Made by a program: the position numbers and the translations under genes. A stretch of DNA of 55,213 bases from a virus (taxonomy: Duplodnaviria; Heunggongvirae; Uroviricota; Caudoviricetes): the IMG/VR virus record IMGVR_UViG_2698536646_000013. One strand, 5' to 3'. Shown here one piece after another: positions 542 through 55,213 of this stretch (positions within the stretch are counted from its first letter, which is position 1; every line of letters starts with the position of its first letter). The notes under the pieces were generated by a model. The model was not told where the DNA came from. It did no database searches and saw nothing but the letters and a program-made list of their open reading frames with translations.

Positions 542-1579
542 TTAACGCTTATCCGCCACCAGTTTGAGCGCGTGTTCCAGCACATTAATGTCTGCACCCG
601 CTTTATGGGCATTTTCACTTAAATAACGCCGCCACTGCCGCGCGCCAGGAATACCCTGGAACAAGCCCAACATATGCCGGGTAATATGGCCGAGATACGT
701 CCCCTGGCTGAGTTCACGCTCAATGTACGGATACATGGCGCGCACTACCGCCACCGGATCGGCATCGGTATCCGAGGAACCAAAGATCTCCCGGTCTACC
801 GCCGCCAGAATACCCGGATTCTGATACGCCTCGCGCCCGACCATCACGCCATCCATATGTTGCAGGTGTGCTTTGGCCTCTTCCAGCGACTTGATACCAC
901 CGTTAATCGACATTGTCAGATGCGGAAAGTCACGCTTCAGTTGATACACACGCGGATAATCGAGTGGCGGGATTTCACGGTTTTCTTTCGGGCTTAACCC
1001 CGAAAGCCAGGCTTTACGTGCGTGGATGATAAACATCTCACACTCGCCTTTGCCGGAAACGGTGTTGATGAAATCGCAGAGAAATTCATAGCTGTCCTGG
1101 TCATCGATGCCAATACGCGTTTTCACCGTCACTGGAATCGACACCACATCGCGCATCGCTTTCACGCAGTCGGCAACCAGCTGCGCATTACCCATCAGAC
1201 ACGCACCAAACATGCCGTTCTGCACCCGGTCAGACGGGCAGCCGACATTCAGGTTGATCTCATCATATCCACGCGCTTCTGCCAGCTTCGCACACTGTGC
1301 CAGCGCCGCCGGATCGCTACCGCCGAGTTGCAACGCTACCGGATGTTCTTCTTCACTGTACGCCAGGTAATCACCTTTACCGTGAATAATCGCCCCTGTG
1401 GTCACCATTTCGGTATACAGCAACGTATTGCGGGAAAGCAGACGCAAGAAATAGCGGCAATGTCTGTCCGTCCAGTCGAGCATAGGAGCAATGCTAAACC
1501 GAGAACTCCAGTAAGCGCCAGTTTTTTCAGGCATCACGCTGGTTTGATTAGTTTTCTGTGTTTCAGGATTATCGTGCAT
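542..1579 (-). CDS. dusA: tRNA-dihydrouridine(20/20a) synthase DusA
   Basis: 345-aa ORF with the conserved Dus core ([24 protein letters not shown]). The first ~30 residues differ from the K-12 N-terminus I remember, consistent with a phage-supplied replacement 5' end. Confidence 0.93.
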
Positions 1580-1612
1580 TTTTGAACATTTCAGGCTATT
1601 TTTCTCGCGTTA

Positions 1613-1647
1613 GGTTCCCGCACAGGTTCCCACGCTTTATGGGAACC
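1613..1647. repeat. Three copies of GGTTCCC (two direct, one inverted) in the dusA-int intergenic region
   Basis: aGGTTCCCgcacaGGTTCCCacgctttatGGGAACCcg. Candidate integrase or regulator binding sites, or a promoter element for the re-built dusA 5' end. Confidence 0.4.
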
Positions 1648-1667
1648 CGAAATAACGAGGTCGTGTA

Positions 1668-2765
1668 ATGGCGTACTATAACATAGAGAAACGACTAAAA
1701 TCCGATGGCACACCACGCTATCGCTGTAATGTGATTATCAAAGAAAAAGGTGTTATCACTTACAGGGAAAGCAAAACATTCCCTAAACATGCTCATGCCA
1801 AAACATGGGGCGCACAGAAAGTGATGGAATTAGATCTATATGGCATTCCATCATCAAATGCTGTTGACGGACTTACAGTCCGTGACTTACTACACAAATA
1901 TTTAAATGACCCAAATGCCGGAGGTAAAGCAGGCCGTACTAAAAGATATGTGCTGGAACTGCTTATGGATAGTGACATCTCCGCGATCAAACTATCTGAA
2001 CTGACAGAAAATGACGTAATTGAACATTGCAGGCTAAGAAACAACGCTGGTGCAGGCCCAGCAACAGTCAGCCACGATGTTAGTTATCTTGGCAGTGTTC
2101 TGGATGCGGCAAAACCTGTATACGGAATCAATTACACATCAAACCCGGCGAAAAGCGCTCGTCCATATCTACTTAAACTCGGTTTGATTGGTAAATCAAA
2201 CCGTCGTAATCGTAGACCAGCATCTGATGAACTGAACATGCTCATTGAAGGCCTTCAACAACGATCTACTCATAAATGCTCAAAAATTCCGTTCGTTGAT
2301 ATCCTCAAATTTTCTGTGTGGTCCTGTATGCGAATCGGAGAAGTATGCCGGTTACGATGGGAAGATCTCGACCAGGAACAAAAATCTATACTAGTAAGAG
2401 ACAGGAAAGATCCACGTAAAAAGGAAGGCAACCATATGAAAGTTGCCTTGCTTGGGGAAGCCTGGGATATCGTCCAGCGACAACCCAAAAAATCAGAATT
2501 CATTTTTCCATATAACAGCACTTCTGTTACCGCAGGATTTCAGAGGGTAAGAAGCAAATTAGGTATTAAAGATCTGAGATACCATGATTTGCGTAGAGAA
2601 GGGGCAAGTCGCTTATTTGAGGCTGGTTTTAGTATTGAGGAAGTCGCTCAGGTTACAGGGCATCGTTCATTAAACGTGCTATGGCAGGTATATACCGAAC
2701 TGTATCCGAAATCTTTACATAATCGTTTTGAAGAACTCCAAAGGAGCAGAAATAAGACCTCTTGA
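1668..2765 (+). CDS. Tyrosine recombinase / phage integrase, dusA-associated type
   Basis: 365 aa, divergent from dusA. C-terminal catalytic region has RIGEVCRLRWEDL and HDLRREGASRLF...VTGHRSLNVLWQVY (R..HxxR..H..Y). RBS aacgagg precedes the ATG. Confidence 0.9.
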   Translation: MAYYNIEKRLKSDGTPRYRCNVIIKEKGVITYRESKTFPKHAHAKTWGAQKVMELDLYGIPSSNAVDGLTVRDLLHKYLNDPNAGGKAGRTKRYVLELLMDSDISAIKLSELTENDVIEHCRLRNNAGAGPATVSHDVSYLGSVLDAAKPVYGINYTSNPAKSARPYLLKLGLIGKSNRRNRRPASDELNMLIEGLQQRSTHKCSKIPFVDILKFSVWSCMRIGEVCRLRWEDLDQEQKSILVRDRKDPRKKEGNHMKVALLGEAWDIVQRQPKKSEFIFPYNSTSVTAGFQRVRSKLGIKDLRYHDLRREGASRLFEAGFSIEEVAQVTGHRSLNVLWQVYTELYPKSLHNRFEELQRSRNKTS

Positions 2766-2825
2766 CACTGTTTATCCATACAGTTAAAAATAATACTGTA
2801 TACAAATACAGTGTAGGGGACTTTT

Positions 2826-3074
2826 ATGCGTATTGAAATCTGCATAGCCAAAGAAAAAATGACTAAAATGCCAACCGGTGCTGTGGATGCGTTAAAGGAA
2901 GAATTAACCCGACGCATCAGTAAACGTTATGACGATGTAGAAGTGATCGTAAAAGCCACCAGCAACGATGGCCTTTCTGTTACGCGCACCGCTGATAAAG
3001 ATTCAGCTAAAACTTTTGTTCAGGAGACTCTGAAAGATACCTGGGAGTCTGCTGACGAGTGGTTTGTTCATTAA
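2826..3074 (+). CDS. DinI-family protein
   Basis: 82 aa, MRIEICIAK...[11 protein letters not shown], matches the DinI pattern (MRIEVTIAK...ETWESADDWFV). Confidence 0.85.
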
Positions 3075-3105
3075 GTTCATCATCTCTGGACACCATTCAC
3101 TTGTA

Positions 3106-3135
3106 TTGACTTTAAGATCATTAAATTGTAATAAT
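3106..3135 (+). promoter_or_regulatory. Sigma70-like promoter driving the RT-module leader
   Basis: -35 TTGACT at 3106-3111, 18-bp spacer, extended -10 TGtAATAAT at 3127-3135. Predicted start near 3142, at the first inverted repeat. Confidence 0.4.
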
Positions 3136-3140
3136 TCAAA

Positions 3141-3277
3141 GGGATGGGGCAGGTTTTTCCTCTTGCGCATGCAAGGGCGGCTCTGATAATGAACAGTAAT
3201 ATTTTACTGTTGAGCTTATGCTCACTGATCCTGCCGGGCAGGATGTTCAACGGTTCCAATATATCCTGCCCCTTCCG
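3141..3277 (+). ncRNA. Candidate structured non-coding RNA (retron msr-msd-like leader)
   Basis: Inverted repeat gggatggggcagg (3141-3153) / cctgccccttcc (3265-3276) brackets three hairpins at 3162-3175, 3192-3211 and 3228-3244. Ends 20 nt before the next start codon. No ORF. Confidence 0.35.
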
Positions 3278-3296
3278 CTTTTAAAAAGGATCTTTT

Positions 3297-3848
3297 ATGC
3301 ATGACAATATTTGGTTTACATATAAAGCACGTATCCAAGCGCACCATCGACTAGAATGGCTTGAAAAACACTCTCAATTTATCCTCGTTTGGTATGCTAT
3401 ATTGAGTGCGGTACTTTCAATTGTAACGTTGCGATTTCCAAAGGTTCTAGGAGATAATACAGATGTCGTTGCGGCGATACTTTCAGTGGCTCTACTGGGT
3501 ATTTCTCTGATCGTATCTAACCTAGATTTTCGTGGTCGAGCAATAGCCATGAGAAGGAATTATATTGCACTACAGCGACTCTATTTTGACATTACCACCA
3601 GTCAACAGTTATCTCTTGAACAGAAAGAAAAATATTTTAATTTGCTCAATGAGGTTGAGAATCACCGTGACATAGATGATAAAATTTCAAGGGTAACTCA
3701 AGTTGGACTTAAGACGAGGATCCCCACACAAAAAGAAAAAATAATTGTTATTTTATGGATATTACTTCGAATATTTATTACTGCCGCACTTTATATACTC
3801 CCATTAATATATCTTTGGATTGACTATGACTGCAAGCAGAATTTTTAA
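3297..3848 (+). CDS. Membrane protein with three hydrophobic segments (candidate effector of the RT module)
   Basis: 183 aa. Hydrophobic helices FILVWYAILSAVLSIVTL, VVAAILSVALLGISLIVSNL and IIVILWILLRIFITAALYILPLIYLWI. AT-rich codons, overlaps the RT ORF by 29 nt, RBS aaagga. Confidence 0.75.
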   Translation: MHDNIWFTYKARIQAHHRLEWLEKHSQFILVWYAILSAVLSIVTLRFPKVLGDNTDVVAAILSVALLGISLIVSNLDFRGRAIAMRRNYIALQRLYFDITTSQQLSLEQKEKYFNLLNEVENHRDIDDKISRVTQVGLKTRIPTQKEKIIVILWILLRIFITAALYILPLIYLWIDYDCKQNF

Positions 3849-5196
3849 AAAGTCATTCTCGAAAAAAAATCTTCTAAAAGTATACTCTGAAAAAATCAAA
3901 GAATCAGGAGCGATTGGCATAGATCGGATTCGCCCATCAAAACTTGATTTGACAATAAAAAATGAGATCACTTTCATTTTTGAAAAGGTTAATTCTGGCA
4001 ATTACAAATTTACAGCATATAAAGAAAAATTAATATCTAAAGGCGCTAACTCTACACCCAGACAGATTTCCATACCAACTGCTAGGGACAGAATTACTCT
4101 TAGAGCTCTCTGTGAATGCCTTACGGAAATATATCCTAAGTCCAGATTAAAACTACCACATACAGTAATTGACTCATTGAAAGAAGCATTAAACAACAGT
4201 CTATATGCTGAATATGCAAAAATAGATCTTAAAAGTTTCTATCCTTCAATTGAACATAAATTGATAATTAATGCAATAAAAAATAAAATTAGAAAAAAAG
4301 AAATTAGACAGTTAATAACATCATCATTAATCGTGCCTACTGTAAGTGGAACCACAGGAAGCAAAGGTATCCCTAATAATACCAGAGGAGTACCTCAGGG
4401 ATTAGCGATATCAAACATTTTAGCTGAAATATCACTATCTAATTTCGATGATGAAATCAATAAAATGCATGACATATGGTACATGCGATACGTTGATGAC
4501 ATTCTTATTTTAACACCAAAATATCAAGCAACAAAAATAGCTTCTCATATCATTGATAAGCTTCAATCATTAAATTTAAACCCACATCCATTAAATGAAG
4601 AGAACTCAAAATCCAAAGTAGGCAGCTTGGATGAAAGTTTCAACTTTTTGGGCTACCACATAAAAAATCGAGAATTATTGATAAAACATGAGAGCATTCT
4701 TAGATTTGAGTCATCCTTAGCAAAAATTTTTACTGCATATAGACACGCTCTACTACAAGCTAAAAATAAGCGCGATAAAGAACGAGCTGTTGCATATTGT
4801 CAGTGGAAACTAAATCTTAGAATTACGGGATGTGTGTTTGAAGGTAAACGATTGGGATGGGTATCGTACTTCTCACAAATAACGTCAACAGCTCAACTTC
4901 GAGCTGTTAATCATACGATCAATAATCTTATCCGCCGATTCGGCCTTTCATCAGAAATAAAACCAAAGTCTTTGATTAAAACTTTCTATGAACTCCGCAG
5001 GGGTAGAGCGGAGACTTTTAAATACATACCTAACTTTGACAATCTACATATATCTCAGAAACGAGAAATTGTTTCTATGTGGATAGGGAAAGAGAATGAA
5101 AAAAAACTTAGCAATAGTGAAATAGAGAGAAAATTTAAATTTAAAATTGCGAAATCAGTAAAAGAGCTTGAAGAGGACATTTCAGGGATATCATAG
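3820..5196 (+). CDS. Reverse transcriptase (retron-type or defence-associated RT)
   Basis: 458 aa with RT motifs PRQISIPTARDRITLRAL, KIDLKSFYPSI, GVPQGLAISNIL, YMRYVDDILIL and FNFLGYHI, plus an ITG motif in the C-terminal thumb-like region. Very AT-rich. Confidence 0.9.
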   Translation: MTMTASRIFKKSFSKKNLLKVYSEKIKESGAIGIDRIRPSKLDLTIKNEITFIFEKVNSGNYKFTAYKEKLISKGANSTPRQISIPTARDRITLRALCECLTEIYPKSRLKLPHTVIDSLKEALNNSLYAEYAKIDLKSFYPSIEHKLIINAIKNKIRKKEIRQLITSSLIVPTVSGTTGSKGIPNNTRGVPQGLAISNILAEISLSNFDDEINKMHDIWYMRYVDDILILTPKYQATKIASHIIDKLQSLNLNPHPLNEENSKSKVGSLDESFNFLGYHIKNRELLIKHESILRFESSLAKIFTAYRHALLQAKNKRDKERAVAYCQWKLNLRITGCVFEGKRLGWVSYFSQITSTAQLRAVNHTINNLIRRFGLSSEIKPKSLIKTFYELRRGRAETFKYIPNFDNLHISQKREIVSMWIGKENEKKLSNSEIERKFKFKIAKSVKELEEDISGIS

Positions 5197-5260
5197 ATAT
5201 GTAATCCATTAAATCCTTTATATATAAAGCAATAAACACACTATTTAAATTCACAAATCA

Positions 5261-5294
5261 GCCGCAGTATCCTGCCATGACAAGTTGCTGCGGC
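5261..5294. other. Hairpin between the convergent RT and tfa genes
   Basis: gccgcag...ctgcggc 7-bp inverted repeat with a 20-nt loop, T-rich on the minus-strand side. Possible terminator for the late operon. Confidence 0.3.
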
Positions 5295-5308
5295 ATATCA
5301 CAAAACGA

Positions 5309-5998
5309 TTACTCCATAACAGGGACCGCAGGCCACTCAATATCAGGTGCAGTTGATGTATCAACACGGTTCAGCAACACCCGATACTTCTTCCAGGCTT
5401 CCAGCAACGAGTTTTCTTCCTCCGNNNNNNNNNNNNNNNNNNNNNNNNNNNNNNNNNNNNNNNNNNNNNNNNNNNNNNNNNNNNNNNNNNNNNNNNNNNN
5501 NNNNNNNNNNNNNNNNNNNNNNNNNNNNNNNNNNNNNNNNNNNNNNNNNNNNNNNNNNNNNNNNNNNNNNNNNNNNNNNNNNNNNNNNNNNNNNNNNNNN
5601 NNNNNNNNNNNNNNNNNNNNNNNNNNNNNNNNNNNNNNNNNNNNNNNNNNNNNNNNNNNNNNNNNNNNNNNNNNNNNNNNNNNNNNNNNNNNNNNNNNNN
5701 NNNNNNNNNNNNNNNNNNNNNNNNNNNNNNNNNNNNNNNNNNNNNNNNNNNNNNNNNNNNNNNNNNNNNNNNNNNNNNNNNNNNNNNNNNNNNNNNNNNN
5801 NNNNNNNNNNNNNNNNNNNNNNNNNNNAACAGCCACAAAGCCAGCCGGAATATCTGGCGGTGCAATATAGGTACTGTTTGCTGGCAGACCTGTATGAGGC
5901 GGAATATATGCGTCACCTTCACCAATAAATTCATTAGTTCCGGTCAGCAGATTATAAATTTTTATGGTCCGTGGTTGTTCACTCATTCTGAATGCCAT
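5309..5998 (-). CDS. tfa: Tail fibre assembly protein (Tfa), interrupted by N-run
   Basis: N-terminus [18 protein letters not shown]...[10 protein letters not shown] and C-terminus [30 protein letters not shown] resemble lambda/Rac Tfa. Start overlaps the stf stop (TAATG). Confidence 0.8.
5425..5827. other. N-run (assembly gap or masked sequence) inside tfa
   Basis: 403 consecutive N. Confidence 0.95.
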
Positions 5999-8900
5999 TA
6001 TGCAAGCCTCACAATATAGTTAAATGCGATGTTTTTGACGGTGTTTTNNNNNNNNNNNNNNNNNNNNNNNNNNNNNNNNNNNNNNNNNNNNNNNNNNNNN
6101 NNNNNNNNNNNNNNNNNNNNNNNNNNNNNNNNNNNNNNNNNNNNNNNNNNNNNNNNNNNNNNNNNNNNNNNNNNNNNNNNNNNNNNNNNNNNNNNNNNNN
6201 NNNNNNNNNNNNNNNNNNNNNNNNNNNNNNNNNNNNNNNNNNNNNNNNNNNNNNNNNNNNNNNNNNNNNNNNNNNNNNNNNNNNNNNNNNNNNNNNNNNN
6301 NNNNNNNNNNNNNNNNNNNNNNNNNNNNNNNNNNNNNNNNNNNNNNNNNNNNNNNNNNNNNNNNNNNNNNNNNNNNNNNNNNNAAAAACACTGGGGTTAA
6401 ATCGACGGCCATCTCTATGGCTGTGATTACCAGCTGCATTCGTGCTGCCACTTAAACTATGGGTATGCGCACCAGTGTTATTCGTGGATTTAGTGCCGTA
6501 ATCAAACGACGATGTGGTTTTCGTCCCCAAATCCGTACTGGATGCGCTGGCGCTGTGGGTATGCGATTTAATGCCGTCCTGTTCCTGAGACAATACGGCC
6601 CGACCACTGGCAGGTTTGCCCTTAATCGTCCAGCCACGCATATCAGGGATCACACCTGACGGATAAACGGCTGCAAGTTTCGGGTAAGCAGATTTGTCAA
6701 AAGTCTGTCCCTGCATCAGGGCATAACCAGACGGAACGGTATCTGATGGCCACGGGATTGGTGCACCGACTGGGTAGCTTTCTGGTGGAAGATTTTTCGA
6801 GGTATAAACTTCTGCCCAGTCTTCCTCAAAACCATAACCGTCTCTTGAAGAACGGTAGAACAGACCACCATTTCTGTAATGCGCCTTCATCTGCAAGGTC
6901 CGGCAACTTCCGACTCCGGTATAGAAGTTAACCAGAATATAGCTGTTGCCAGAGCGGGTGACATTGTAAGCGCCTGATTCGGCATTCCATGGAACGCCAC
7001 CATCCGCATCGGCATATGTATCCGTTGCCCTTCTGGCAAAAGCAGCCACATGCGCGGCGGTTAAAGTAATATCTTTGGAACCATCAAACTCAACACCAGA
7101 AACCAGTCTTGGCGTTTGCAGCTTTGTTGCTGTCAATGCGTTACCGTTCAGACTTGCAGACAGTTTGGTTCCAATAACCAGTTCGCCGGTTGCGTTATCA
7201 ATAACAAACGGTCTTAATGTATTCCAGCCACCATAAACATCACCTTGATTGGTAAGCAGCAGGTAAGTTTTAGCGCCATCATTACGCCATAATGCACCAT
7301 ACTCCCCACCTATCATTCGAATCTGATTACCACCACGCGCTACAATTTCGTCTGTGGCAAAAAGTTTTTTGCACGACAAGTTATCGTTAACGATTAACGA
7401 ATGAGACTCATAAAAACCACGCCCACTCTTAAAATCAAGGATAACGTCCGCCGCGATACATTCAGTCGCCGGATTTGTTGCCCCAAACTTATAGGTCGTA
7501 TCATTAACAACGAGATCAGCACCAGGTGCGGATATTGACAGGCCATCTTCGAGAAACGCAAAAACAGGGAAAGCAGCGCCATCAACATAGAACACAGAGC
7601 GCAAATCATCGCCCTTATTACTCATCATTATTGAGTGGATGGCTCGTTCATTGTTTTGATATTGCCAGAACATTCCATAAGCATAACGCCCCCTGTCAGT
7701 CCAGCCACCAGGCATAACAAATCCGTTAAACTCGCAGTTATTCATCGGATCGCCTGCGATTCGCGTTGCCGTGGTGATAATGACCCTTGATGCCAGTTCG
7801 CTTACTGAGCCAGCAGAACGCATAACAACAACAGGGTAATATTTTCCAGATGTTGCACCTGCAGGAGCGTTAACCCGCACATAACGCATACCACGCTTAT
7901 CAGCAAAGTCTGTTTTACTGACCGCGTTAATGTTGTTCAGGAAGCGTCCCTTATCGGGTATATCAGCGCCGTTCTGGTCTTTCTGCAGACGTTTCTCAGC
8001 ATTGTCATTGGCTGCTTTTACTGCCTTTGGCGTTGCCGCCAGCGTTTCAGACGTGCTATTAGTCGCACTACTGAGCTGTACTATCCCCTTTTTCGTCGTG
8101 CTCGCATCCTCAAGCGCCACGGCGGATGCAATATCCTCTGCACGTTTTGCCGCTGTCTCGGCGCGCGTTGCCGCGGATTCCGCCGTACTTTTGCTCTGTG
8201 CTGCCGCCGTCGCACTGCCAGCAGCCTCTGTCGCCTTCGTGGATGCTGTCGTGGCGCTGCCCTTCGCTGCGGACGCTTGTCTGGTCGCCTCATCTTTTGA
8301 AGCAGACGCCGATGATGCCGATGACGCCGCCGAACTGGCGGACGATGCGGCAGCCGTTTTTGAGGATTCTGCGCTGGTCTCCGACGCTTTCGCGTTCGTC
8401 TCCGATGTCTTCGCTGCGGAAGCAGACCTCGCTGCTGCACTGGCCTGTTCAGTGGCTTCGCCAGCCTTCGTTGTGGCTGTTGAAGCGGACGATGCGGCGC
8501 TTTCTGCCGATTTTCCGGCGGCGCTAGCACTGGCTGAGGCCTGCCCGGCACTTGTTGACGCTGCACTGGCAGACGACGCAGCCGCTGTTTTTGAGCCTGC
8601 TGCTGCGGAGGCACTCTGTGCTGCTGCCGTTTCAGAGGACTTAGCGTTTGTCTCAGACGTCTTTGCCGCCTTCGCGGAATTTCCTGCCGCCGTTGCCGAG
8701 GAAGCGGCATTACTGGCGCTCGAAGCTGCGCTCGTTTCTGATAATTTTGCCGCCTCTTTTGAAGCCGACGCATCTCTGGCTGAGGTGGCTGCTTCTGACG
8801 CTTTCGTGGTCGCGGTGGATGCAGAAGTGGCAGCTGATTGTTGTGACGCTGCCGCATTCGTTTCTGACGTTTTCGCCGCACCGGCACTGGTGGCCGCCGC

Positions 8901-9485
8901 GCTTTTTGAGGACTCTGCAGCGGCAGCACTTTTTGATGCTTCAGTGGCCTTTGCTGATGCCGTTCCTGCGCTGGAAGACGCAGACTGAGCCGACGAAGCG
9001 GCCTGTCCGGCTGACGTGCTGGCTGCTCGTGCTGAGCCTGCAGCATCAGTCGCACGGGTTGCCGCCTCACGGGCTGATGTGCTGGCATCGCTGGCTGATT
9101 TCTTCGCGGCTGCCGTGTTCTGTGCCACCGCGGACGCGTTACGCGCCACCTCTTCCACCATCAGCTCAAAACGGCGCAGTGCCTCCGGACGGGCATCATC
9201 CTCCGTCATGGCACCGAGAAAATCATTCAGCGTACCGGGTCGGGAATCTTCATACACGGTGATGGTCCCGGCATGTGACGGCGGGAATCCTTCCACCAAC
9301 AGAATAACGCTGTACTGACCGTACTCAACGTCCATGCTGTAACGCCCGGCTTCATCCGGATTTTCTGAGGCCAGCGTGTTCACCACCACCGTGGTGCTGT
9401 TACGTTTTGCTTTCAGCTGGATTGTGCAGTTCTGTACCGGTTTTCCTGTGCCGTCTTTCAGTACACCTGAAATCTTTACTGCCAT
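5998..9485 (-). CDS. stf: Side tail fibre protein (Stf), interrupted by N-run near the C-terminus
   Basis: [26 protein letters not shown]... followed by long Ala/Ser-rich repeats and GAPIPWPSD...[17 protein letters not shown]. The true C-terminus ...[12 protein letters not shown] is read in the frame ending at 5998-6000. The ORF-table end at 6009 is a frame artefact of the gap. Confidence 0.85.
6048..6383. other. N-run inside stf
   Basis: 336 consecutive N. Confidence 0.95.
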
Positions 9486-9494
9486 ATTCACCCC

Positions 9495-9523
9495 ACAAAA
9501 AAGCCCGCCTGAACCGGCGGGCT
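9495..9523 (-). terminator. Rho-independent terminator between lom and stf
   Basis: Stem agcccgcc / ggcgggct, loop tgaacc, followed on the minus strand by TTTTTT. Confidence 0.5.
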
Positions 9524-9549
9524 GTCATAACACTGTGTTACCTGGCTAA

Positions 9550-10606
9550 TCAGAATTTATAACCGACACCCACGATGAAACCGTCAGTGCGCCAGTCGCC
9601 ACTGCCGGAGCCTTCATAAGCAATATCAATGGCCACGGATTCGGTCGGGTTAAACTGCACGCCAGCTCCCCACGCCAGAGACGTGTTGCTGTGGCGACCG
9701 TCATCACTTCCGGTCAGCACGTCGTGCGTTTTCCCCTTGTTGTCAGTTACGCGGAGATAATCCCCGGAGAAAGTCGACACACGGCTGTAAGCCACACCCG
9801 CCATCGCATACGCGCTGAACCATTCATTCACGCGCACAGACGGCCCCGCCATTACGCTGAACCAGCGGTTACGAACGGAATCTTCATGCCAGCGGGTATC
9901 GCTGTAACGGGTCAGCTGGCGATTCTTGTCTCCTGCATAGCTGAATGACGTCACCAGCCCCAGNNNNNNNNNNNNNNNNNNNNNNNNNNNNNNNNNNNNN
10001 NNNNNNNNNNNNNNNNNNNNNNNNNNNNNNNNNNNNNNNNNNNNNNNNNNNNNNNNNNNNNNNNNNNNNNNNNNNNNNNNNNNNNNNNNNNNNNNNNNNN
10101 NNNNNNNNNNNNNNNNNNNNNNNNNNNNNNNNNNNNNNNNNNNNNNNNNNNNNNNNNNNNNNNNNNNNNNNNNNNNNNNNNNNNNNNNNNNNNNNNNNNN
10201 NNNNNNNNNNNNNNNNNNNNNNNNNNNNNNNNNNNNNNNNNNNNNNNNNNNNNNNNNNNNNNNNNNNNNNNNNNNNNNNNNNNNNNNNNNNNNNNNNNNN
10301 CCCCGCCATTACGCTGAACCAGCGGTTACGAACGGAATCTTCATGCCAGCGGGTATCGCTGTAACGGGTCAGCTGGCGATTCTTGTCTCCTGCATAGCTG
10401 AATGACGTCACCAGCCCCAGCGTATCCGTAAACTCATAACGGTATTTCACGTTAATCCCGTTCAGATCATCACTGCCGGGAACGTTGGTCCGGGCATGAA
10501 GATACCCCGCGCTCAGCGTGGACTGATGTTCAGACGCCCATGCAGGCGCACCGGATACGGCCAGACAAATGGCTGCGGACAAAATGGCGGCACAAACTTT
10601 ACGCAT
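9550..10606 (-). CDS. lom: Lom-like outer membrane protein (Ail/Lom family), split by N-run and duplication
   Basis: MRKVCAAILSAAICLAVSGAPAWA signal peptide, then beta-barrel sequence ending ...GFIVGVGYKF. Removing the gap and one copy of the duplicate gives a ~199-aa protein. Confidence 0.85.
9844..10420. repeat. 120-bp direct duplication (9844-9963 = 10301-10420) flanking the N-run 9964-10300
   Basis: Identical sequence ccccgccattacgctgaacc...gtcaccagccccag on both sides of the N-run. Typical of unmerged contig ends in a scaffold. Confidence 0.85.
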
Positions 10607-10630
10607 AATTACCTCTCGCTTTTCTGCAAT

Positions 10631-10654
10631 AAAAAAGGCGTCATTCCTGACGCC
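10631..10654 (-). terminator. Rho-independent terminator between J and lom
   Basis: Stem ggcgtca / tgacgcc, loop ttcc, followed on the minus strand by TTTTTTATT. Confidence 0.5.
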
Positions 10655-10676
10655 ATTTATTGGGGTTATAAATATT

Positions 10677-13600
10677 TCAACGAATACTGATGCCGGAAGC
10701 CGCTTTTTTGGTCACAATCACCGTACAGTCGGTGATATTGCCTGCCCCCTGATTGCCTTTCTGGAAAATCTTAAACTCCAGAGTGACGCTACCACCACCA
10801 CTAGGCATATCAATAACTGCACTGTAACTACCGGGAATGGCACCTTTAGTTTCTCTGGATGCGATTAATACGCCGTTTTTGCGAACTTCAAAACCATAAC
10901 CCGTGTATCGCGTGCCTCCTGGGTTATTTCCGCTCCCCGGATCGTCATACGCTATACCGTTAAAAATAATGGGCGGAATAATAATCTGGCGGTCAAAGTT
11001 ATGATCATCGCTGATGGTGACTGTAACCGTACCGTCTGGTGTTTCCGTGTTACCCCACGTACCGACTTTTTTCGGGAAGGCTTTTGATACAGCTTTAACG
11101 AAATCCCCTCTGACCTGGGTCGCCTCCAGCATGCCCTTAATCGTACAGTTCTGGTTAATCGTGACATTGTTGAGCGTTCCTGAGTTCGCATTCACACTAC
11201 CACTGATATCCGCATTTTTAGCGGTCAGCTTTCCGTCTGATGTCAGGGAAAATACCGGAGGACTGCCACCGCTGGTAATGGCGGGGGCTGTCAGGCGCTT
11301 CAGGAACACGTCGTTCATGAATATCTGGTTGCCCTGCGCCACAAACATCGGCGTTTCATTCCCGTTTGCCGGGTCAATAAACGCGATACGATTGGCGGCA
11401 ACCAGAAACTGGCTCAGCTTGCCTTCCTCCGTGTCCTCCATGCTGAGGCCAATACCCGCGACATAATGTTTGCCGTCTTTGGTCTGCTCAATTTTGACGC
11501 CCCACATCGCATTCCATTTATCGTTAGCGTCCTTCCACTCTTTCGAAAACTCATCCAGTCTGCTGGCGTTATCCTCCGTCAGATCAACTTTTTCCAGCAG
11601 CTCTTTACCGAGATGGGATTCGGTTATCTTGCCTTTGAAAAAATCCAGGTAACCTTCCGCATCATCGCTCGCCCGACCGACGGCCTCCACGAATGCCGAT
11701 TTGCCAACGGTGTTCACACTGCGGATATAAAAGTAATAATCATGGCCCGGTTTGATATTGATACTGGCGGCTATCCAGTACAGCCCCGCGCCAAGGTAGC
11801 GGGCTGTGGTTTCAACCTGCCTGATATCGGTAATCCGCGTTTCCGAGAACCAGAACTCAAACTGTACCGTCGGATCATAAACCGCAAGATGCGGCGTGGC
11901 AGTTATCTGAAAATAGCCCGGCGTCAGCTCAATCCGCGACGGTGCTACCGGTGCGGCAATCCTGAACGATACCGACGCCGGATCGCCCTGCTGTCCCCAG
12001 GCATTTACCGCCCGGACTGTCAGCGTGTACCGTCCCAGCGCCAGTTGCGTGAAGCGGTATGTGGTTTCCGTCGTCCGGGCCGTGCTGACCAGCCGCTCAC
12101 TGCCGTCATCCGCTGCCACGGTCAGGCGAAGCATAAAGCTCACCCCCTTCACCACCTTCGGCGTGTCCCAGCGCGCCAGCACCTGATATTCCCCGCTGTC
12201 TGCGGTGACTTCGGCAGTCAGGTGCTGCACCGCTGGCGGCGTGACACCATTCACCGTGCCGCTCTGGTCGCCGTCAAAGTGCGCCCCGTTATCCACGATG
12301 GCTTCTTTTTCCGGTACATGCTGCACGGCAGTGATGGCATACGTGCCGTCATCGTTCTCACGGATACTCACACAGCGGAACAGGCGCTGGCGCAACGTCG
12401 GCAGCTTCAGCCCCCACACGCTGTATTCAGCAACGCCGTCAGGAACACGGCTCACTTTCACCTTCACGCCGTCGGTGACGGACTGAACCTCCACGCTGAC
12501 CGGATTGCCACTTCCGTCAACCAGGCTTATCAGCATGGTACCGGAGGATGGCAGCGTGATTTCACGGTCGAGCGTCAGCGTCCGGGTCTGGCTGTTTACC
12601 GCCAGCACGCGCCCGCCGATGCTGATACCCGCATAGTCATCATCACAGATTTCAATGACATCGCCCGGCACATGGCGAAGCCCTTCTGCGCCCACGCTGA
12701 AGTCCACGGTCTGCGTTTCCAGCAGTTCTGTTTTAATCAGCCACAGCCCGGCGCGGTGTGCCTGCCCCCGGCTGGTACAGCCAAAAGCATCCATCTTCGT
12801 GACGTTACGACCGTAACGGGCAATGGCCTGCGTATCCTCCACAAGCTCTGTCGCCGTCTCCCAGCCGTTATCCGGGTCAATCCAGTTCACCTCAACGGCA
12901 TTATGGCGGTCTTTCAGGGCGCTGAAGCTGTAGCGGAACGGCGCGCCATCATCCGGCATCACCACATTACTGCGGTTATAGGTCCACACCTTATCCGACG
13001 GTCGGTCCTGCACGAACGTCAGCGTCTGCCCGTTCCATACCGGCATACAGCGCATCGCCGAGCAGAAATCACTGAGCACATCCCACGCCTTGCGCTGTGT
13101 GGTCAGGTACGCATTACAGGTGATGCGCGGCTCCGTGCCGCCAAAGCCGTCCGGCACTGACTGGTCGCAGTACTGGCCGATGACATACAGCGCCCATTTG
13201 TCCACATCCGCCGCACCAAGACGTTTCCCCATGCCGTAGCGCGGGTGGGTCAGCATATCCCACAGACACCAGGCCATGTTGTTGCTGTATGCTGGTTTTA
13301 ACGTTCCGTCCCAGATACCGCTGTATTGTCGCGTCTGCGGGTTATAGTTCGACGGCACCTGCAGAATGCGCCCGCGAAGATGATAATTACGACTCACCTG
13401 CTGGCTGCCGAACTGCTCCGAGTCCACCTGTACGCCGACCAGTGCAGTGTTCGGGTAGCACTGTTTCACATCGATGATTTCGGTGTATGACGACCAGAGC
13501 GTTTTGTTCTGCAGCTGGTCTGTGGTGCTGTCCGGTGTCATCCTGCGCATCCGGATACTGAACGGGCGCGGAGGCAGGTTATCCACCACCACCGAGACCA

Positions 13601-14090: not shown

Positions 14091-14150
14091 TCCTCACGCT
14101 CCATAAACGACAAAACCGCCCGCAGGCGGTTTCTCATAAAACATTTTGCA

Positions 14151-15996: not shown

Positions 15997-16001
15997 GGGA
16001 T

Positions 16002-42279: not shown

Positions 42280-42294
42280 GTATGACCTGCGCTA

Positions 42295-43317
42295 TTAAAA
42301 TTCATGAATGAACGGTTTGTCATCTGGTTGCAAAATGGTGGTTTTATTCGTTGCTACATTTAAACTGTTGTAGAGCATAATTGCCAGGTTCGATGCATTT
42401 TCAATCAGCGTTTCAAGATCCTGGTCTGTAATCACTACGAGGTTCCCTTCTTTATCCTTTCCACCACGATGCACTAAGTGATTTCGATTGAGGGTTGCCA
42501 ATTCAATAGCTTCTATCGGACAGTCTTTTTGTACTTTTATATCGAATGTAGCTTCATAGCGGTCGATTACCTTTTTAGTGCTATGCCAGCTTGCACTGAT
42601 CAAGTGTTCCTTGATTGACCTGATTAGCTCTCCCCTAATTTTCTCGATGGGTTCACCCTTGAAAGGCAACGCAGCAATATCTTTGCTTACTTTAAATTCA
42701 GTCTTACCTTTTTCTATACAATTGGCTATGTAGACATCATCTTTCTCTATAGAATTAATGAATAGCTCAACATAAAGCGTTTCCAAAGCTGTAATAACAT
42801 TCGTGTAGAGCAAACTAAGCAAGTGGTTTTTTTGCTGTTGTTCAGTTTTATCTTTTGCAAGTTTTTTTATTTTATCGATATTATCAATGAATTTTAAATA
42901 CGGATTACCGGAAGACGTTACAGCGTCGTAGATATCATCATCGTACCAATCATCTATATTATTTGAGTTTCCAGACCAGTCAAAACATTGTGTTTGTAAT
43001 TCATCTACTAATTCCTCAATATACTCAGATTTAACATATTGACCGAAGATGGATTGTAGTTCTTCGCTCGCATCATACGGCCCGCCATATATGTAAGCAT
43101 AGCCACCTTCTCTACTTTCATACGGACAAGCATTTGCCGGATCTTCAAAGTTTTCAAAGAACCAGTTTTTCATTACTTCGAGTTGATCTTTTTTGCTTAT
43201 GTATTTTAAAGATTTTAGTGGAACTTTCTTTCCATTAACCTCGAAAACAATTTTCACGATGTAACGCTCCCTTGTATCAATTGCGCAACTATTATACCAC
43301 AGCGAAATACAGGGCAT
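42295..43317 (-). CDS. Hypothetical protein with HEPN-type RNxxxH motif (first gene of AT-rich cargo operon)
   Basis: 340 aa from MPCISLWYN (ATG 43317, RBS AAGGAGG). C-terminal ...ELATLNRNHLVHRGG... contains R-N-x3-H. AT-rich relative to flanking phage genes. Confidence 0.7.
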   Translation of the reverse strand: MPCISLWYNSCAIDTRERYIVKIVFEVNGKKVPLKSLKYISKKDQLEVMKNWFFENFEDPANACPYESREGGYAYIYGGPYDASEELQSIFGQYVKSEYIEELVDELQTQCFDWSGNSNNIDDWYDDDIYDAVTSSGNPYLKFIDNIDKIKKLAKDKTEQQQKNHLLSLLYTNVITALETLYVELFINSIEKDDVYIANCIEKGKTEFKVSKDIAALPFKGEPIEKIRGELIRSIKEHLISASWHSTKKVIDRYEATFDIKVQKDCPIEAIELATLNRNHLVHRGGKDKEGNLVVITDQDLETLIENASNLAIMLYNSLNVATNKTTILQPDDKPFIHEF

Positions 43318-43455
43318 AACCTGCCTCCTTAAACTAACATACCATGAGCCAGCAATGTCCGCTATTGGCACAAAGCGGACAACCACGCTAGCTCTCCCCT
43401 GTGCCAGAAAAATGTCAATTTACATATGAACTAATGCTCTTTGATCTAGTAACGT

Positions 43456-49827: not shown

Positions 49828-52428
49828 ATGAGCACAAAACCACTCTTCCTGTTACGGAAAGCGAAAAAATCATCCGGTGAACCTGACGTCGTCCTGTGGG
49901 CAAGCAACGATTTTGAATCGACCTGTGCCACTCTGGACTACCTGATCGTTAAGTCAGGTAAAAAACTGAGCAGCTATTTTAAAGCTGTTGCCACGAATTT
50001 TCCTGTCGTTAATGACCTGCCCGCTGAAGGTGAGATCGATTTTACCTGGAGTGAACGCTATCAACTCAGCAAAGACTCCATGACATGGGAACTAAAACCG
50101 GGAGCAGCACCAGACAACGCTCACTATCAAGGCAATACCAACGTCAACGGCGAAGACATGCCTGAGATTGAGGAGAATATGCTACTCCCAATTTCTGGCC
50201 AGGAACTGCCCATTCGTTGGCTTGCTCAACACGGCAGCGAAAAACCGGTAACGCACGTTTCACGCGACGGACTCCAGGCATTACACATTGCTCGGGCTGA
50301 AGAACTACCGGCTGTTACTGCCCTGGCTGTTTCCCACAAAACCAGCCTGCTCGACCCGCTGGAAATTCGCGAACTCCACAAACTGGTTCGTGACACTGAC
50401 AAAGTTTTCCCTAATCCTGGTAATTCAAACCTGGGACTGATAACTGCTTTTTTCGAAGCATACCTGAACGCTGACTACACCGATCGAGGACTGCTGACAA
50501 AAGAGTGGATGAAGGGTAATCGTGTTTCACACATCACTCGCACGGCTTCCGGTGCTAATGCTGGCGGCGGAAACCTCACCGATCGCGGCGAAGGTTTCGT
50601 ACACGATCTGACGTCACTGGCGCGGGACGTAGCCACTGGCGTACTGGCCCGTTCAATGGATCTGGACATCTATAACCTTCATCCGGCACACGCTAAACGC
50701 ATTGAGGAAATTATCGCTGAAAATAAACCGCCCTTTTCTGTTTTCCGCGACAAATTCATCACCATGCCTGGCGGGCTGGATTATTCCCGCGCCATCGTGG
50801 TTGCGTCCGTAAAAGAAGCACCAATTGGGATCGAGGTCATCCCCGCGCACGTCACTGAATATCTGAACAAAGTACTGACTGAAACCGATCATGCCAACCC
50901 TGATCCGGAAATCGTGGATATTGCCTGCGGTCGCTCCTCTGCCCCGATGCCGCAGCGAGTAACAGAAGAAGGAAAACAGGATGATGAAGAAAAACCGCAA
51001 CCATCTGGAACAACGGCAGTTGAACAGGGAGAGGCTGAAACAATGGAACCGGACGCAACTGAACATCATCAGGACACGCAGCCGCTGGATGCTCAGTCAC
51101 AGGTAAATTCTGTTGATGCGAAATATCAGGAACTGCGGGCAGAACTCCATGAAGCCCGGAAAAACATTCCATCAAAAAATCCTGTCGATGCCGATAAATT
51201 GCTTGCTGCATCACGTGGTGAATTTGTTGACGGAATTAGCGACCCGAACGATCCGAAATGGGTAAAGGGGATCCAGACTCGCGATTGTGTGTACCAGAAC
51301 CAGCCAGAAACGGAAAAAACCAGCCCGGATATGAATCAACCTGAGCCAGTAGTGCAACAGGAACCGGAAATAGCCTGCAATGCCTGCGGCCAGACTGGCG
51401 GGGATAACTGCCCTGACTGTGGTGCGGTGATGGGCGACGCAACATACCAGGAAACATTCGATGAAGAGAGTCAGGTTGAAGCTAAGGAAAATGATCCGGA
51501 GGAAATGGAAGGCGCTGAACATCCGCACAATGAGAATGCTGGCAGCGATCCGCATCGCGATTGCAGTGATGAAACTGGCGAAGTCGCAGATCCCGTAATC
51601 GTAGAAGACATAGAGCCAGGTATTTATTACGGAATTTCGAATGAGAATTACCACGCGGGTCCCGGTGTCAGTAAGTCTCAGCTCGATGACATTGCTGATA
51701 CTCCGGCACTGTATTTGTGGCGTAAAAATGCCCCCGTGGACACCACAAAGACAAAAACGCTCGATTTAGGAACCGCTTTCCACTGCCGGGTACTTGAGCC
51801 GGAAGAATTCAGTAACCGCTTTATCGTAGCACCTGAATTTAACCGCCGGACAAACTCCGGAAAAGAAGAAGAGAAAGCGTTTCTGAGGGAATGCGCAAGC
51901 ACAGGAAAAACGGTTATCACTGCCGAAGAAGGCCGGAAAATTGAACTCATGTATCAGAGCGTTATGGCTTTGCCGCTGGGGCAATGGCTTGTTGAAAGCG
52001 CCGGACACGCTGAATCATCAATTTACTGGGAAGATCCTGAAACAGCAATTTTGTGTCGGTGCCGTCCGGACAAAATTATCCCTGAATTTCACTGGATCAT
52101 GGACGTGAAAACTACGGCGGATATTCAACGATTCAAAACCGCTTATTACGACTACCGCTATCACGTTCAGGATGCATTCTACAGTGACGGTTATGAAGCA
52201 CAGTTTGGAGTGCAGCCAACTTTCGTTTTTCTGGTTGCCAGCACAACTATTGAATGCGGACGTTATCCGGTTGAAATTTTCATGATGGGCGAAGAAGCAA
52301 AACTGGCAGGTCAGCTGGAATATCACCGCAATCTGCGAACCCTGGCTGACTGCCTCAATACCGATGAATGGCCAGCTATTAAGACGTTATCACTGCCCCG
52401 CTGGGCTAAGGAATATGCAAATGACTAA
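49828..52428 (+). CDS. recE: Exonuclease VIII (RecE)
   Basis: 866 aa, [41 protein letters not shown]... to ...[11 protein letters not shown]. Stop overlaps the recT start. Confidence 0.95.
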
Positions 52429-53435: not shown

Positions 53436-53472
53436 AATAAACGAACCACTGGAAATAATAATGGAGGTGTTC

Positions 53473-53661
53473 ATGTATAAAATTACCGCCACTATTGAAA
53501 AGGAAGGTGGCACTCCTACTAACTGGACAAGATATTCAAAATCTAAACTAACGAAATCAGAATGCGAAAAAATGCTCTCAGGTAAAAAAGAAGCAGGCGT
53601 TTCCAGAGAGCAGAAAGTAAAACTGATAAATTTTAATTGCGAGAAACTTCAGTCCTCGTGA
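53473..53661 (+). CDS. ydaC: YdaC-like small protein
   Basis: 62 aa MYKITATIEKEGGTPTNWTRYSKSKLTKSECEKMLSGKKEAGVSREQKVKLINFNCEKLQSS, RBS GGAGG. Confidence 0.6.
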   Translation: MYKITATIEKEGGTPTNWTRYSKSKLTKSECEKMLSGKKEAGVSREQKVKLINFNCEKLQSS

Positions 53662-53760
53662 ATTGCATTGTATTCAAATTAAAACTTCATAGCTGATTAT
53701 TAATAATCAACATCGGGCGTCAATTTAAGTCTAACATTGGCGCCTGCCAGAGGTGATGCG

Positions 53761-53976
53761 ATGGCACAAGTAATCTTTAATGAAGAGTGGATGGTTGAAT
53801 ACGGCCTGATGCTTCGCACTGGTCTGGGGGCCAGACAAATTGAAGCATACCGCCAGAACTGTTGGGTGGAAGGCTTCCACTTCAAACGAGTATCTCCTTT
53901 AGGGAAGCCAGACAGTAAGCGAGGGATTATCTGGTATAACTATCCAAAGATAAATCAGTTTATCAAAGACTCATGA
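53761..53976 (+). CDS. xisR: Excisionase XisR (YdaQ)
   Basis: 71 aa [51 protein letters not shown]... immediately upstream of intR. Confidence 0.85.
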
Positions 53977-53977
53977 T

Positions 53978-55213
53978 ATGTCTAAATTACCAACAGGTGT
54001 CGAGATTCGAGGTAAATACATTCGCATCTGGTTCATGTTTCGAGGAAAACGATGTCGGGAAACATTGAAAGGCTGGGAGGTTACTAACAGTAACATTAAA
54101 AAAGCCGGGAATTTAAGAGCGTTGATAGTTCATGAAATCAATTCCGGTGAGTTTGAGTATTTAAGACGTTTTCCCCAGTCCAGCACTGGGGCAAAAATGG
54201 TGACAACGAGGGTCATAAAAACGTTCGGGGAGCTTTGTGATATCTGGACAAAAATTAAAGAAACAGAGTTAACAACAAACACAATGAAGAAAACGAAATC
54301 ACAATTAAAAACACTCAGGATAATAATTTGTGAGAGTACTCCGATATCGCATATTCGTTATAGCGATATCTTAAACTACCGGAATGAACTGCTGCATGGA
54401 GAAACGCTTTACCTGGATAATCCAAGATCCAACAAAAAAGGAAGAACCGTGCGCACAGTTGATAACTATATCGCCCTGCTCTGTTCGTTGTTACGTTTTG
54501 CGTATCAGTCGGGATTTATATCAACCAAACCATTTGAAGGAGTAAAGAAATTACAGAGAAACAGAATAAAGCCTGACCCGTTATCTAAAACAGAATTCAA
54601 TGCATTAATGGAAAGTGAAAAAGGACAGAGCCAGAACTTGTGGAAATTTGCCGTATACTCCGGGCTTCGTCACGGGGAACTGGCTGCTCTGGCGTGGGAG
54701 GATGTGGATTTCGAGAAGGGAGTTGTGAATGTCAGAAGAAACCTGACGATACTGGATATGTTCGGTCCCCCAAAAACAAATGCGGGGATCCGGACGGTAA
54801 CACTACTGCAGCCTGCTCTTGAAGCACTGAAGGAGCAATACAAACTGACCGGGCATCATCGCAAAAGCGAAATCACTTTTTATCATCGGGAGTACGGCAG
54901 AACCGAAAAGCAAAAACTGCATTTTGTTTTCATGCCCAGAGTGTGTAACGGAAAACAGAAACCTTATTACTCGGTAAGCAGTTTGGGTGCGAGATGGAAT
55001 GCAGCAGTAAAACGTGCTGGTATTCGCCGCCGTAATCCGTACCATACGCGGCATACTTTTGCCTGCTGGCTGTTGACGGCAGGAGCGAACCCGGCGTTTA
55101 TAGCCAGCCAGATGGGGCATGAAACTGCGCAGATGGTGTATGAAATTTACGGTATGTGGATTGATGACATGAACGACGAACAGGTAGCCATGTTGAATGC
55201 GCGGTTATCGTAG
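53978..55213 (+). CDS. intR: Rac-type prophage integrase IntR (tyrosine recombinase)
   Basis: 411 aa, MSKLPTGVEIRGKYIRIWFMFRGKRCRETLKGW... with catalytic YHTRHTFACWLL...MGHETAQMVYEIY. Stop codon is the last codon of the window. Confidence 0.95.
   Translation: MSKLPTGVEIRGKYIRIWFMFRGKRCRETLKGWEVTNSNIKKAGNLRALIVHEINSGEFEYLRRFPQSSTGAKMVTTRVIKTFGELCDIWTKIKETELTTNTMKKTKSQLKTLRIIICESTPISHIRYSDILNYRNELLHGETLYLDNPRSNKKGRTVRTVDNYIALLCSLLRFAYQSGFISTKPFEGVKKLQRNRIKPDPLSKTEFNALMESEKGQSQNLWKFAVYSGLRHGELAALAWEDVDFEKGVVNVRRNLTILDMFGPPKTNAGIRTVTLLQPALEALKEQYKLTGHHRKSEITFYHREYGRTEKQKLHFVFMPRVCNGKQKPYYSVSSLGARWNAAVKRAGIRRRNPYHTRHTFACWLLTAGANPAFIASQMGHETAQMVYEIYGMWIDDMNDEQVAMLNARLS

Follow-up and report, generated by a model that had tools for sequence, protein, structure and literature searches.

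The apparent prophage with two integrases in the window (the whole stretch of 55,213 nucleotides analysed) is most likely an assembly artefact of a draft E. coli scaffold. Very probably, the left end of a lambdoid prophage integrated in dusA was joined to a Rac-type prophage across gaps in tail genes that the two have in common, and the two integrases are probably not parts of one element. This reading draws on the identities of the two parts, the anatomy of the gaps and the absence of the join elsewhere.

The window would be a slice of a short-read E. coli scaffold that passes through tail genes common to several lambdoid prophages. The left part (1 to ~9963) would hold the chromosomal pspG-dusA locus and the left end of a prophage of the mEp460/phi1720a-02 type, comprising attL inside dusA, the dusA-specific integrase, dinI, a SLATT and UG17 reverse transcriptase cargo and tail-fibre genes. 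The remainder of that prophage (its own J, an HK97-like head, early genes and attR with the dusA 5′ remnant) would lie outside the window. The right part (10301-55213) would be a full-length Rac-type prophage running from lom/J to xisR-intR, of a kind integrated at ttcA in complete genomes, with its tail-fibre end (stf, tfaR, sitABCD and the att adjoining uspF) likewise outside. Each integrase would have its own site and its own element. The assembler would have broken the contigs at de Bruijn graph forks, where the prophage copies diverge, and the scaffolder would then have linked the unique contigs flanking the common ones, with gaps of the wrong size. We infer that both prophages are present in full in the source genome, each at its own locus, and that the missing halves (dusA-type J, head and attR; Rac-type stf, tfaR and sit) lie elsewhere in the same assembly.

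The dusA locus and the left end of its prophage

The tyrosine integrase that the original prediction placed beside dusA proved to be real and full-length. It matched PF00589, was 100% identical to WP_000332259.1 as encoded in O177:H21 and A14, and displayed the R...HxxR...H...Y motif in alignment. The gene lies at the 5′ end of dusA and is divergent from it, with 88 bp between the two, and at the nucleotide level it was 96.8-97.8% identical to int of phages mEp460, 1720a-02, Lys8385Vzw and phiSTEC1575-Stx2k. In 57 complete genomes the dusA locus matched window positions 1-5424 at 99.9% identity.

The first ~100 nt of dusA appear to be prophage-supplied. Window 1466-1582 was ~83% identical to the remnant of the dusA 5′ end that A14 and O177:H21 carry at attR of their dusA prophages; this remnant was absent from the window and seen only in these complete relatives. 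The motif at attL, TCCAGTCGAGCATAGGAGC, differed by one base from TCCAGTCGAGCATGGGAGC, the attB published for phi-stx2dact in C. rodentium (PMC6328086). Judging by the common core TCGAGCAT, the replacement 5′ end of dusA would start at 1484. A second copy of the dusA att, the partner of attL, was absent within the window, and a small dusA island with its attR inside these limits was accordingly rejected.

The SLATT and UG17 reverse transcriptase genes (3297-5196) form a defence-type cargo pair of the dusA prophage. In 10 of 10 megabase-scale contigs the exact reverse transcriptase was followed by dusA-type prophage tail genes, always with a different J; the J proteins of dusA-type prophages have 1132, 1160 or 1165 aa. 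In complete genomes 40 kb of phage genes belonging to the same element follow the int-dinI-SLATT-RT block without a break, as far as the dusA remnant. The dusA prophage of O177:H21 and A14 spans 44-46 kb, has a single integrase and ends at the dusA 5′ remnant by zur. The early-gene end of dusA-type phages carries PrtN/Panacea genes, not xis-int.

The Rac-type prophage

The xisR/intR pair predicted at the opposite end was likewise borne out as real and full-length, XisR being 100% identical to WP_000079604.1 (FORC_081) and IntR to WP_000040839.1 (FORC_081 and A14). The right part of the window holds tail, P22-like head, terminase, trkG, lysis, replication, immunity and recET genes, followed by xisR and intR. 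Positions 10301-24647 were 99.95-100% identical to a Rac-type contig (L014), and 15877-55213 gave a single match of 39,338 bp and 99.957% to the Rac prophage of NCTC10444, which lies between uspF/sitABCD and ttcA and has the same gene order recE-recT-ralR-DUF1187-xisR-intR.

The stop codon of intR is also the end of the window. Among genome contigs, exact matches to the final 51 bases occurred only in E. ruysiae, E. albertii and one metagenome-assembled genome, none of them the source. In three complete genomes (NCTC10444, FORC_081 and A14) ttcA starts 52 bp past this stop, consistent with the expectation that Rac normally sits in ttcA, and intR adjoined ttcA in all of the close relatives examined. 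In NCTC10444 the ttcA 5′ end recurs as a 43-bp repeat between uspF and sitA. Contigs with the exact J of the window continue into Lom, a 986-aa tail fibre, tfa, sitDCBA, uspF and ompN. The Rac-type part of the window lacks its own tail fibre, tfaR, sitABCD and both copies of the Rac att, presumably because the scaffold switches to another prophage. The dusA attL is the only att site in the window, which consequently has no bounding att pair. No tRNA genes, as possible alternative att sites, were found in the window.

Anatomy of the scaffold gaps

The two parts are linked solely through five runs of Ns (5425-15876) in tail-fibre, lom, J and tail-assembly genes. Each of the five falls in tail genes that are present in several copies, at 2-3 places per genome in the median and at 17 at most, and the run lengths are at odds with every reference. 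The flanks of the N-runs are 26, 28, 247 or 298 bp apart in references, or overlap by 120 bp, compared with 215-403 Ns in the window; length-preserving masks were therefore rejected as an explanation of the N-runs. The proposal that 1440-55213 is one prophage was not confirmed: the sequence between the integrase genes is interrupted by these mis-sized runs, it matched two chromosomal loci, and its one att site is unpartnered.

Table 1. Features of the window, with the evidence for each
Feature	Position	Strand	Basis
dusA, tRNA dihydrouridine synthase A (host gene)	542-1579	-	TIGR00742, 581 bits
dusA-type att motif at attL	1471-1489		read from sequence
Phage-supplied replacement 5′ end of dusA	1484-1582 (limits approximate)	-	alignment to remnants
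dusA-associated tyrosine integrase, 365 aa	1668-2765	+	PF00589
DinI-like protein, dusA-prophage cargo	2826-3074	+	PF06183
SLATT protein	3297-3848	+	PADLOC RTasSLATT, 1.5e-56
UG17-class reverse transcriptase	3826-5196	+	PADLOC RT_UG17, 1.1e-158
Scaffold gap 1, in tail fibre assembly gene	5425-5827		403 N vs 298 bp in O177:H21
Two small contigs, tail-fibre gene and 3′ part of lom	5828-6047, 6384-9963	-	reference identities
Scaffold gap 2	6048-6383		336 N vs 247 bp in references
Scaffold gap 3, inside lom	9964-10300		337 N vs 120-bp overlap
Rac-type prophage, lom/J to intR	10301-55213		99.95-100% identity to Rac-type prophages
Tail tip protein J, Rac-type allele, 1137 aa	10677-14090	-	exact protein in Rac-type contigs
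Scaffold gap 4	14335-14549		215 N vs 26 bp in references; mis-sized, colinear
Scaffold gap 5	15481-15876		396 N vs 28 bp in references; mis-sized, colinear
recE	49828-52428	+	NF007259, 1825 bits
recT	annotated start equivalent to 52421, end 53230	+	NF007351, 466 bits
xisR, excisionase	53761-53976	+	translation identical to FORC_081 CDS annotated xisR
intR, Rac integrase, 411 aa	53978-55213	+	PF12167 (Arm-DNA-bind_2) and PF00589 (Phage_integrase)

The first contig ends ~149 bp inside sequence common to the tfa genes of Rac loci. The two small contigs that follow it (5828-9963) appear by their identities to be dusA-type or Qin-type, not Rac(sit)-type: they were 97.7-100% identical to the dusA prophage of O177:H21 and 99.5-99.7% identical to a ydfJ-adjoining prophage of strain 15A, and they occur at a median of 3 and a maximum of 17 places per genome. 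The larger of the two, the tail-fibre contig, was 99.7% identical to the ydfJ-adjoining prophage (15A), 98.7% at a dusA locus (CM151362) and 97.7% to O177:H21, so that its best match is to a third prophage type and its assignment to the dusA prophage is less than certain.

Gap 3 is most likely the chimeric junction. Its flanks overlap exactly (9844-9963 equals 10301-10420, 120 bp), and the first base that distinguishes the Rac type from the dusA/Qin type is 10421, right at the end of the overlap. This coincidence therefore points to a fork in a de Bruijn assembly graph, which implies at least two different continuations in the source genome. Removal of the Ns and of one copy of the overlap restored an intact Lom of 199 aa. 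Left of the gap (8004-9963), identity was 94.7% to the Rac-type contig L014 and 97.7-99.7% to dusA/Qin-type prophages; right of it (10301-14334), the values were 99.95% and 92.6-96.3%, respectively. Both types are nearly identical over lom 9557-10420, within which an exact switch point is not fixable, and the lom SNPs at 9556 and 9721 do not place a crossover, since the references vary at both. A junction within common sequence is likewise to be expected of a true homologous recombinant. The ORF at 9884-10606, an artefact that spans the lom gap, had no match on record.

Occurrence of the join and alternative explanations

A search of 5,426 complete E. coli genomes gave no place that covered at least 80% of window 1-25000, and in none of them was the dusA end joined to this tail/head module. 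The rebuilt 2-kb junction was matched at 99.0% at best. Among phage records, 12 had the dusA-type int and 6 had intR, with no overlap between the two sets. Both elements are present in A14, with identical Int proteins and 1.85 Mb between them, and its dusA and ttcA loci were matched on the same strand.

We see only a small chance that the join exists physically in the source strain, as a hybrid with the dusA integrase and intR at its ends that arose when the tail regions of a dusA prophage and a Rac prophage recombined homologously. The junction falls within ~400 bp over which the lom sequences are nearly identical and could plausibly recombine, and such exchange between lambdoid prophages has precedent in E. 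coli. The contigs were linked by a scaffolder, so bridging read pairs are possible, and because scaffolding is based on read pairs each single link presumably has some physical support. However, the direct orientation of the dusA and ttcA loci in A14 means that simple recombination would give not an inversion but a deletion junction, with the lethal loss of ~2.9 Mb. On the K-12 map dusA lies at 4.26 Mb, oriC at 3.92 Mb and Rac at 1.41 Mb, and the lost stretch would, we presume, take in oriC. A real join could still have come about as the junction of a megabase-scale tandem duplication, or after a prior rearrangement that left the prophages mutually inverted. Its absence from all the complete genomes, the fork at 10421 with its second continuation in the same genome, and the incorrect size of every gap, which marks the scaffolding as unreliable, all argue against it. 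That lom recombination yielded a real hybrid prophage at dusA with two intact recombination modules, for which lysogeny at either dusA or ttcA would be possible, is given a very slim chance; such a phage would carry the dusA-specific Int at its late-gene end and XisR/IntR at its early-gene end.

The original prediction had favored a single mosaic phage in which one integrase is a relic, or which can use alternative sites. A phage at dusA with a whole Rac-type body and a relic or alternative xisR-intR, able to use dusA or ttcA, would agree with the intactness of both integrase genes and with the mosaicism of lambdoid phages, but is highly improbable. The arrangement was found in none of the 5,426 complete genomes and the two integrases together in no phage record, and the 45 kb that include intR are 99.95-100% identical to prophages resident at ttcA. 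Moreover, the window has no partner for the dusA att, the sequence between the integrases is not contiguous, and the early-gene end of dusA-type phages has PrtN/Panacea genes in place of xis-int. We consider it extremely improbable that a Rac-type phage inserted site-specifically into a dusA prophage, or that a small dusA island (int-dinI-SLATT-RT) stands in tandem with an independent prophage. The block is indeed compact and island-like, and a prophage body follows it immediately, but no second att closes it and in complete genomes the same block runs on into its own phage genes. The Rac-type part begins by homology within lom/J instead of at a Rac att site, and it lacks the stf-tfaR-sitABCD-att arm. 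A chimeric scaffold join, which had also been raised in view of the N-runs, is the best reading of the gap anatomy, the two loci and the absence of the join elsewhere.

The main value of this case is as a caution. Lambdoid prophages within one E. coli genome have tail-fibre, lom and J sequence in common, and short-read scaffolds can therefore stitch them into plausible but false mosaics, here an apparent element with two integrases. Automated prophage callers, and studies of mosaicism or dual-site integration on draft scaffolds, would mis-score this window. A real join would make this a temperate phage with two alternative modules for integration, an example of modest interest; the evidence points the other way.

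Relationship to known elements

Both underlying elements, a dusA-integrating lambdoid prophage and a full-length Rac-type prophage at ttcA, are already described, and the window is a textbook case of a chimeric scaffold through collapsed prophage repeats, with nothing unusual about it. As in other short-read scaffolds of this kind, repeat boundaries are where the contigs break, the lengths of the N-gaps are arbitrary and closed genomes lack the join; the 120 bases by which contig ends overlap would equal k-1 at k = 121.

Elements with DusA-associated integrases have been described (Farrugia et al. 2015; PMC4482086). The window shares with dusA-integrated lambdoid phages an integrase that adjoins the dusA 5′ end divergently, an att motif ~100 nt into dusA and what appears to be a phage-supplied dusA 5′ end. 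In phi-stx2dact, which is phage 1720a-02, int likewise lies next to the tail-fibre (late) end, a non-canonical orientation (PMC6328086). Unlike these phages, the window has the left end only, and its cargo is dinI with SLATT/UG17 RT in place of stx.

The Rac-type part differs from full Rac-type prophages in lacking the tail-fibre/sitABCD arm and both att sites, and is otherwise colinear with that of NCTC10444 from 15877 onward. The Rac prophage of E. coli (intR-xisR-recET-kilR-sieB, integrated in ttcA) has full-length relatives, among them phage Rac-SA53 and the NCTC10444 prophage. K-12 Rac is a defective remnant, whereas the copy in the window keeps a complete P22-like head and tail module. 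The xisR-intR DNA was 97.2% identical to that of phage Rac-SA53.

Two integrases in one scaffold

The full-length tyrosine integrase beside dusA and the xisR/intR pair at the opposite end, as described in the original prediction, were both present in the window, the DNA of which is that of E. coli, and both were substantiated by profile matches. The dusA-type integrase was full-length and 100% identical to WP_000332259.1 (annotated intact in RefSeq; strains O177:H21 and A14), and the likewise full-length IntR was 100% identical to WP_000040839.1 (annotated intact in RefSeq; FORC_081 and A14). Alignment of the dusA-type integrase to XerA revealed R...HxxR...H...Y. Alignment of IntR against Tn1549 Int placed a tyrosine at the first-histidine position (YHTRH), which is normal for the IntR family, because the window IntR equals RefSeq IntR. 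The two integrases shared only 53 identities across 158 aligned residues. A tRNA search found no tRNA genes in the window.

Features of the two window ends and of the region linking them
Feature	Position	Orientation	Remarks
pspG	left end, before dusA
dusA	542-1579	minus	TIGR00742, 581 bits
dusA-type tyrosine integrase, 365 aa	1668-2765	divergent from dusA	PF00589
Gap 1	5425-5827		403 N; 298 bp in references
Gap 2	6048-6383		336 N; 247 bp in references
Gap 3	9964-10300		337 N; overlap of 120 bp
Gap 4	14335-14549		215 N; 26 bp in references
Gap 5	15481-15876		396 N; 28 bp in references
Short linking contigs	5828-6047, 6384-9963, 10301-14334, 14550-15480		tfa, stf, lom, J, tail-assembly genes
recE, recT, DUF1187 gene	right end, ahead of xisR-intR
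xisR	53761-53976		right end
intR	53978-55213		right end; Arm-DNA-bind_2, Phage_integrase

The window is very probably a chimeric scaffold that joins two known prophages with separate integrases and attachment sites. Window 1-5424, spanning pspG, dusA, int and the DinI-like, SLATT and reverse transcriptase (RT) genes, has a 99.9% identical counterpart at the dusA locus in 57 of 5,426 complete E. coli genomes. In O177:H21 and A14 this block forms the left end of a lambdoid prophage of 44-46 kb (order int, dinI, SLATT-RT, tfa, stf, lom, J, tail, HK97-like head, terminase, lysis, Q, immunity, PrtN, Panacea). The prophage has one integrase in each strain, and at its far end a fragment annotated as partial "tRNA-dihydrouridine synthase" adjoins DUF2713/zur. 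Window 15877-55213 matched the Rac-type prophage of NCTC10444, located between uspF/sitABCD and ttcA, in one 39,338-bp stretch at 99.957% (16 mismatches, 1 gap). In that strain 52 bp separate the intR stop from the ttcA start, and FORC_081 and A14 have the same arrangement, in agreement with the statement that Rac normally sits in ttcA. A14 has both elements, with integrase proteins identical to those of the window, 1.85 Mb apart and matched on the same strand. Thus 1440-55213 is probably not one prophage: its two parts match two separate loci and are linked through five gaps. Each underlying element had been described before.

The first base of the window directly follows the qorA CDS and its last belongs to the intR stop codon. 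Limits of this kind make it probable that the slice was trimmed to genes, not to contig ends, and that the scaffold continues; ttcA is expected 52 bp past the window end.

The point of transition

All five N-runs in the window fell within 5425-15876. The contigs between them are multi-copy sequences: their median is 2-3 places per complete genome and their maximum 17. Treating the N-runs as length-preserving masks was rejected, since the N counts disagree with the reference spacings. Gaps 4 and 5 are colinear, mis-sized breaks within the Rac-type part.

Right of gap 3, 10301-24647 matched CXMZ01000003.1 (L014) and other draft contigs at 99.95-100% identity. There the exact 1137-aa J (tail tip protein) of the window precedes Lom, a 986-aa tail fibre, tfa, sitDCBA, uspF and ompN, the Rac locus. 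Left of the gap, 8004-9963 was only 94.7% identical to the L014 contig. Ten megabase-scale contigs encode an RT protein identical to that of the window; in every one, tfa-stf-lom comes next and then a J of 1132, 1160 or 1165 aa, and the 1137-aa allele in none. From the identities on either side and these RT/J pairings, the type changes at, or at most ~400 bp from, gap 9964-10300. The origin of the tail-fibre contigs in the dusA prophage is uncertain, and a third prophage could be their source: for 6384-9963, identity was 99.7% with a prophage adjoining ydfJ in strain 15A, as against 98.7% at the CM151362 dusA locus and 97.7% in the dusA prophage of O177:H21.

The 120 bp at 9844-9963 were repeated exactly at 10301-10420, and removal of the gap 3 Ns with one copy of the overlap restored an intact 199-aa Lom. 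The first base right of the gap that parts Rac-type from dusA-type and Qin-type (a third prophage class) sequence was 10421, directly past the overlap. The exact duplicate points to assembly with a k-mer of 121, after which scaffolding left overlapping contig ends unmerged; together with the divergence at 10421 it looks like a de Bruijn graph contig boundary at a fork (k-1 = 120). A fork past this 120-mer implies a source genome with at least two different continuations, that is, a second lom-J junction outside the window. We infer that the missing halves of both prophages are present elsewhere in that genome.

Attachment sites

The att motif at the dusA junction, TCCAGTCGAGCATAGGAGC, lies at 1471-1489. 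It differs by a single base from the published attB of phi-stx2dact, a dusA phage whose insertion point is ~100 bp inside the gene and which brings a replacement 5′ end with it (PMC6328086); a family of dusA-integrating elements has been described (PMC4482086). In A14 and O177:H21 the original dusA 5′ end persists as a remnant at attR, the far end of the prophage, and window 1466-1582 resembles it at ~83% identity, as would be expected of a phage-borne replacement 5′ end. With the first ~100 nt of dusA supplied by the phage, a chimeric DusA N-terminus would be expressed by the lysogen. A second copy of the dusA att was not found in the window. In NCTC10444, 43 bp of the ttcA 5′ end recur between uspF and sitA, and neither copy of this Rac att repeat lies within the window. 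Of the two elements, therefore, one is represented in the window by a single att site and the other by none.

Could the join be real?

None of the 5,426 complete E. coli genomes had a place covering at least 80% of window 1-25000. The best places began at 5276 or 5828, away from the dusA locus, and those inspected were at the Rac locus. A 2-kb junction rebuilt from both contigs matched at best at 99.0%, each half alone being near-perfect elsewhere. Among 50,697 phage records, the dusA-type integrase occurred in 12 (including mEp460, 1720a-02, Lys8385Vzw, phiSTEC1575-Stx2k, SKA5 and PhiR40_1) and xisR-intR DNA matched 6, five at 97% or more over the full length (Rac-SA53 and four vB_EcoS records) and the sixth, PHB10, weakly (30% coverage at 76%); no record was common to both lists.

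With both A14 loci matched on the same strand, the tail genes that they share are direct chromosomal repeats. Recombination between these genes could make the join physically real in only two ways, a large deletion or a tandem duplication, inversion needing a prior rearrangement. As a deletion the join would cost ~2.9 Mb. On the K-12 map dusA lies at 4.26 Mb, oriC at 3.92 Mb and Rac at 1.41 Mb, and the lost segment would therefore include oriC. The other way would make the join the junction of a ~1.85-Mb tandem duplication. Site-specific insertion of one phage into the other was ruled out because the Rac-type part starts by homology in lom/J, without its own stf-tfaR-sitABCD-att arm. The mosaic option offered originally, taken as one phage at dusA whose intR is a relic, fits poorly with the fork at 10421 and with 45 kb that are 99.95-100% identical to prophages resident at ttcA. 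The chimeric scaffold join, also suggested originally from the N-runs, is favoured by the mis-sized gaps, the 120-bp overlap, the fork and the two-locus identities, and most likely no real "two-integrase prophage" exists here.

Cargo and other gene content

In the dusA prophage the SLATT gene overlaps the start of the UG17-class RT (3297-5196; PADLOC RTasSLATT 1.5e-56, RT_UG17 1.1e-158), the pair being cargo between dinI and a tail fibre assembly gene.

The Rac-type part (10301-55213), with a P22-like capsid, DUF4055 portal, terminase and tape measure, looks structurally complete apart from gaps 4 and 5 and the missing tail-fibre/sitABCD arm; in relatives sitABCD lies inside the prophage, between the att site and tfaR. 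It also carries trkG, two TolA C-terminal-domain genes (36058-37032), sieB, kilR and ralR. At 31187-32900, directly upstream of its small terminase gene, the gene for a 262-aa ParB_N-domain protein, the N-terminal part of which also matches a PADLOC type II methyltransferase model, overlaps that of a TET-associated glycosyltransferase (TAGT, PF20691, 4e-34); together they may form a module for DNA modification. Between the replication genes and the DUF1367/1364/1133 late-regulator region, two neighbouring proteins annotated as hypothetical (41278-43386; 333 and ~320-363 aa) had no match in a PADLOC search and sub-threshold matches only (GNAT; HEPN/RES N-terminal domain), and are possibly uncharacterised accessory or defence cargo.
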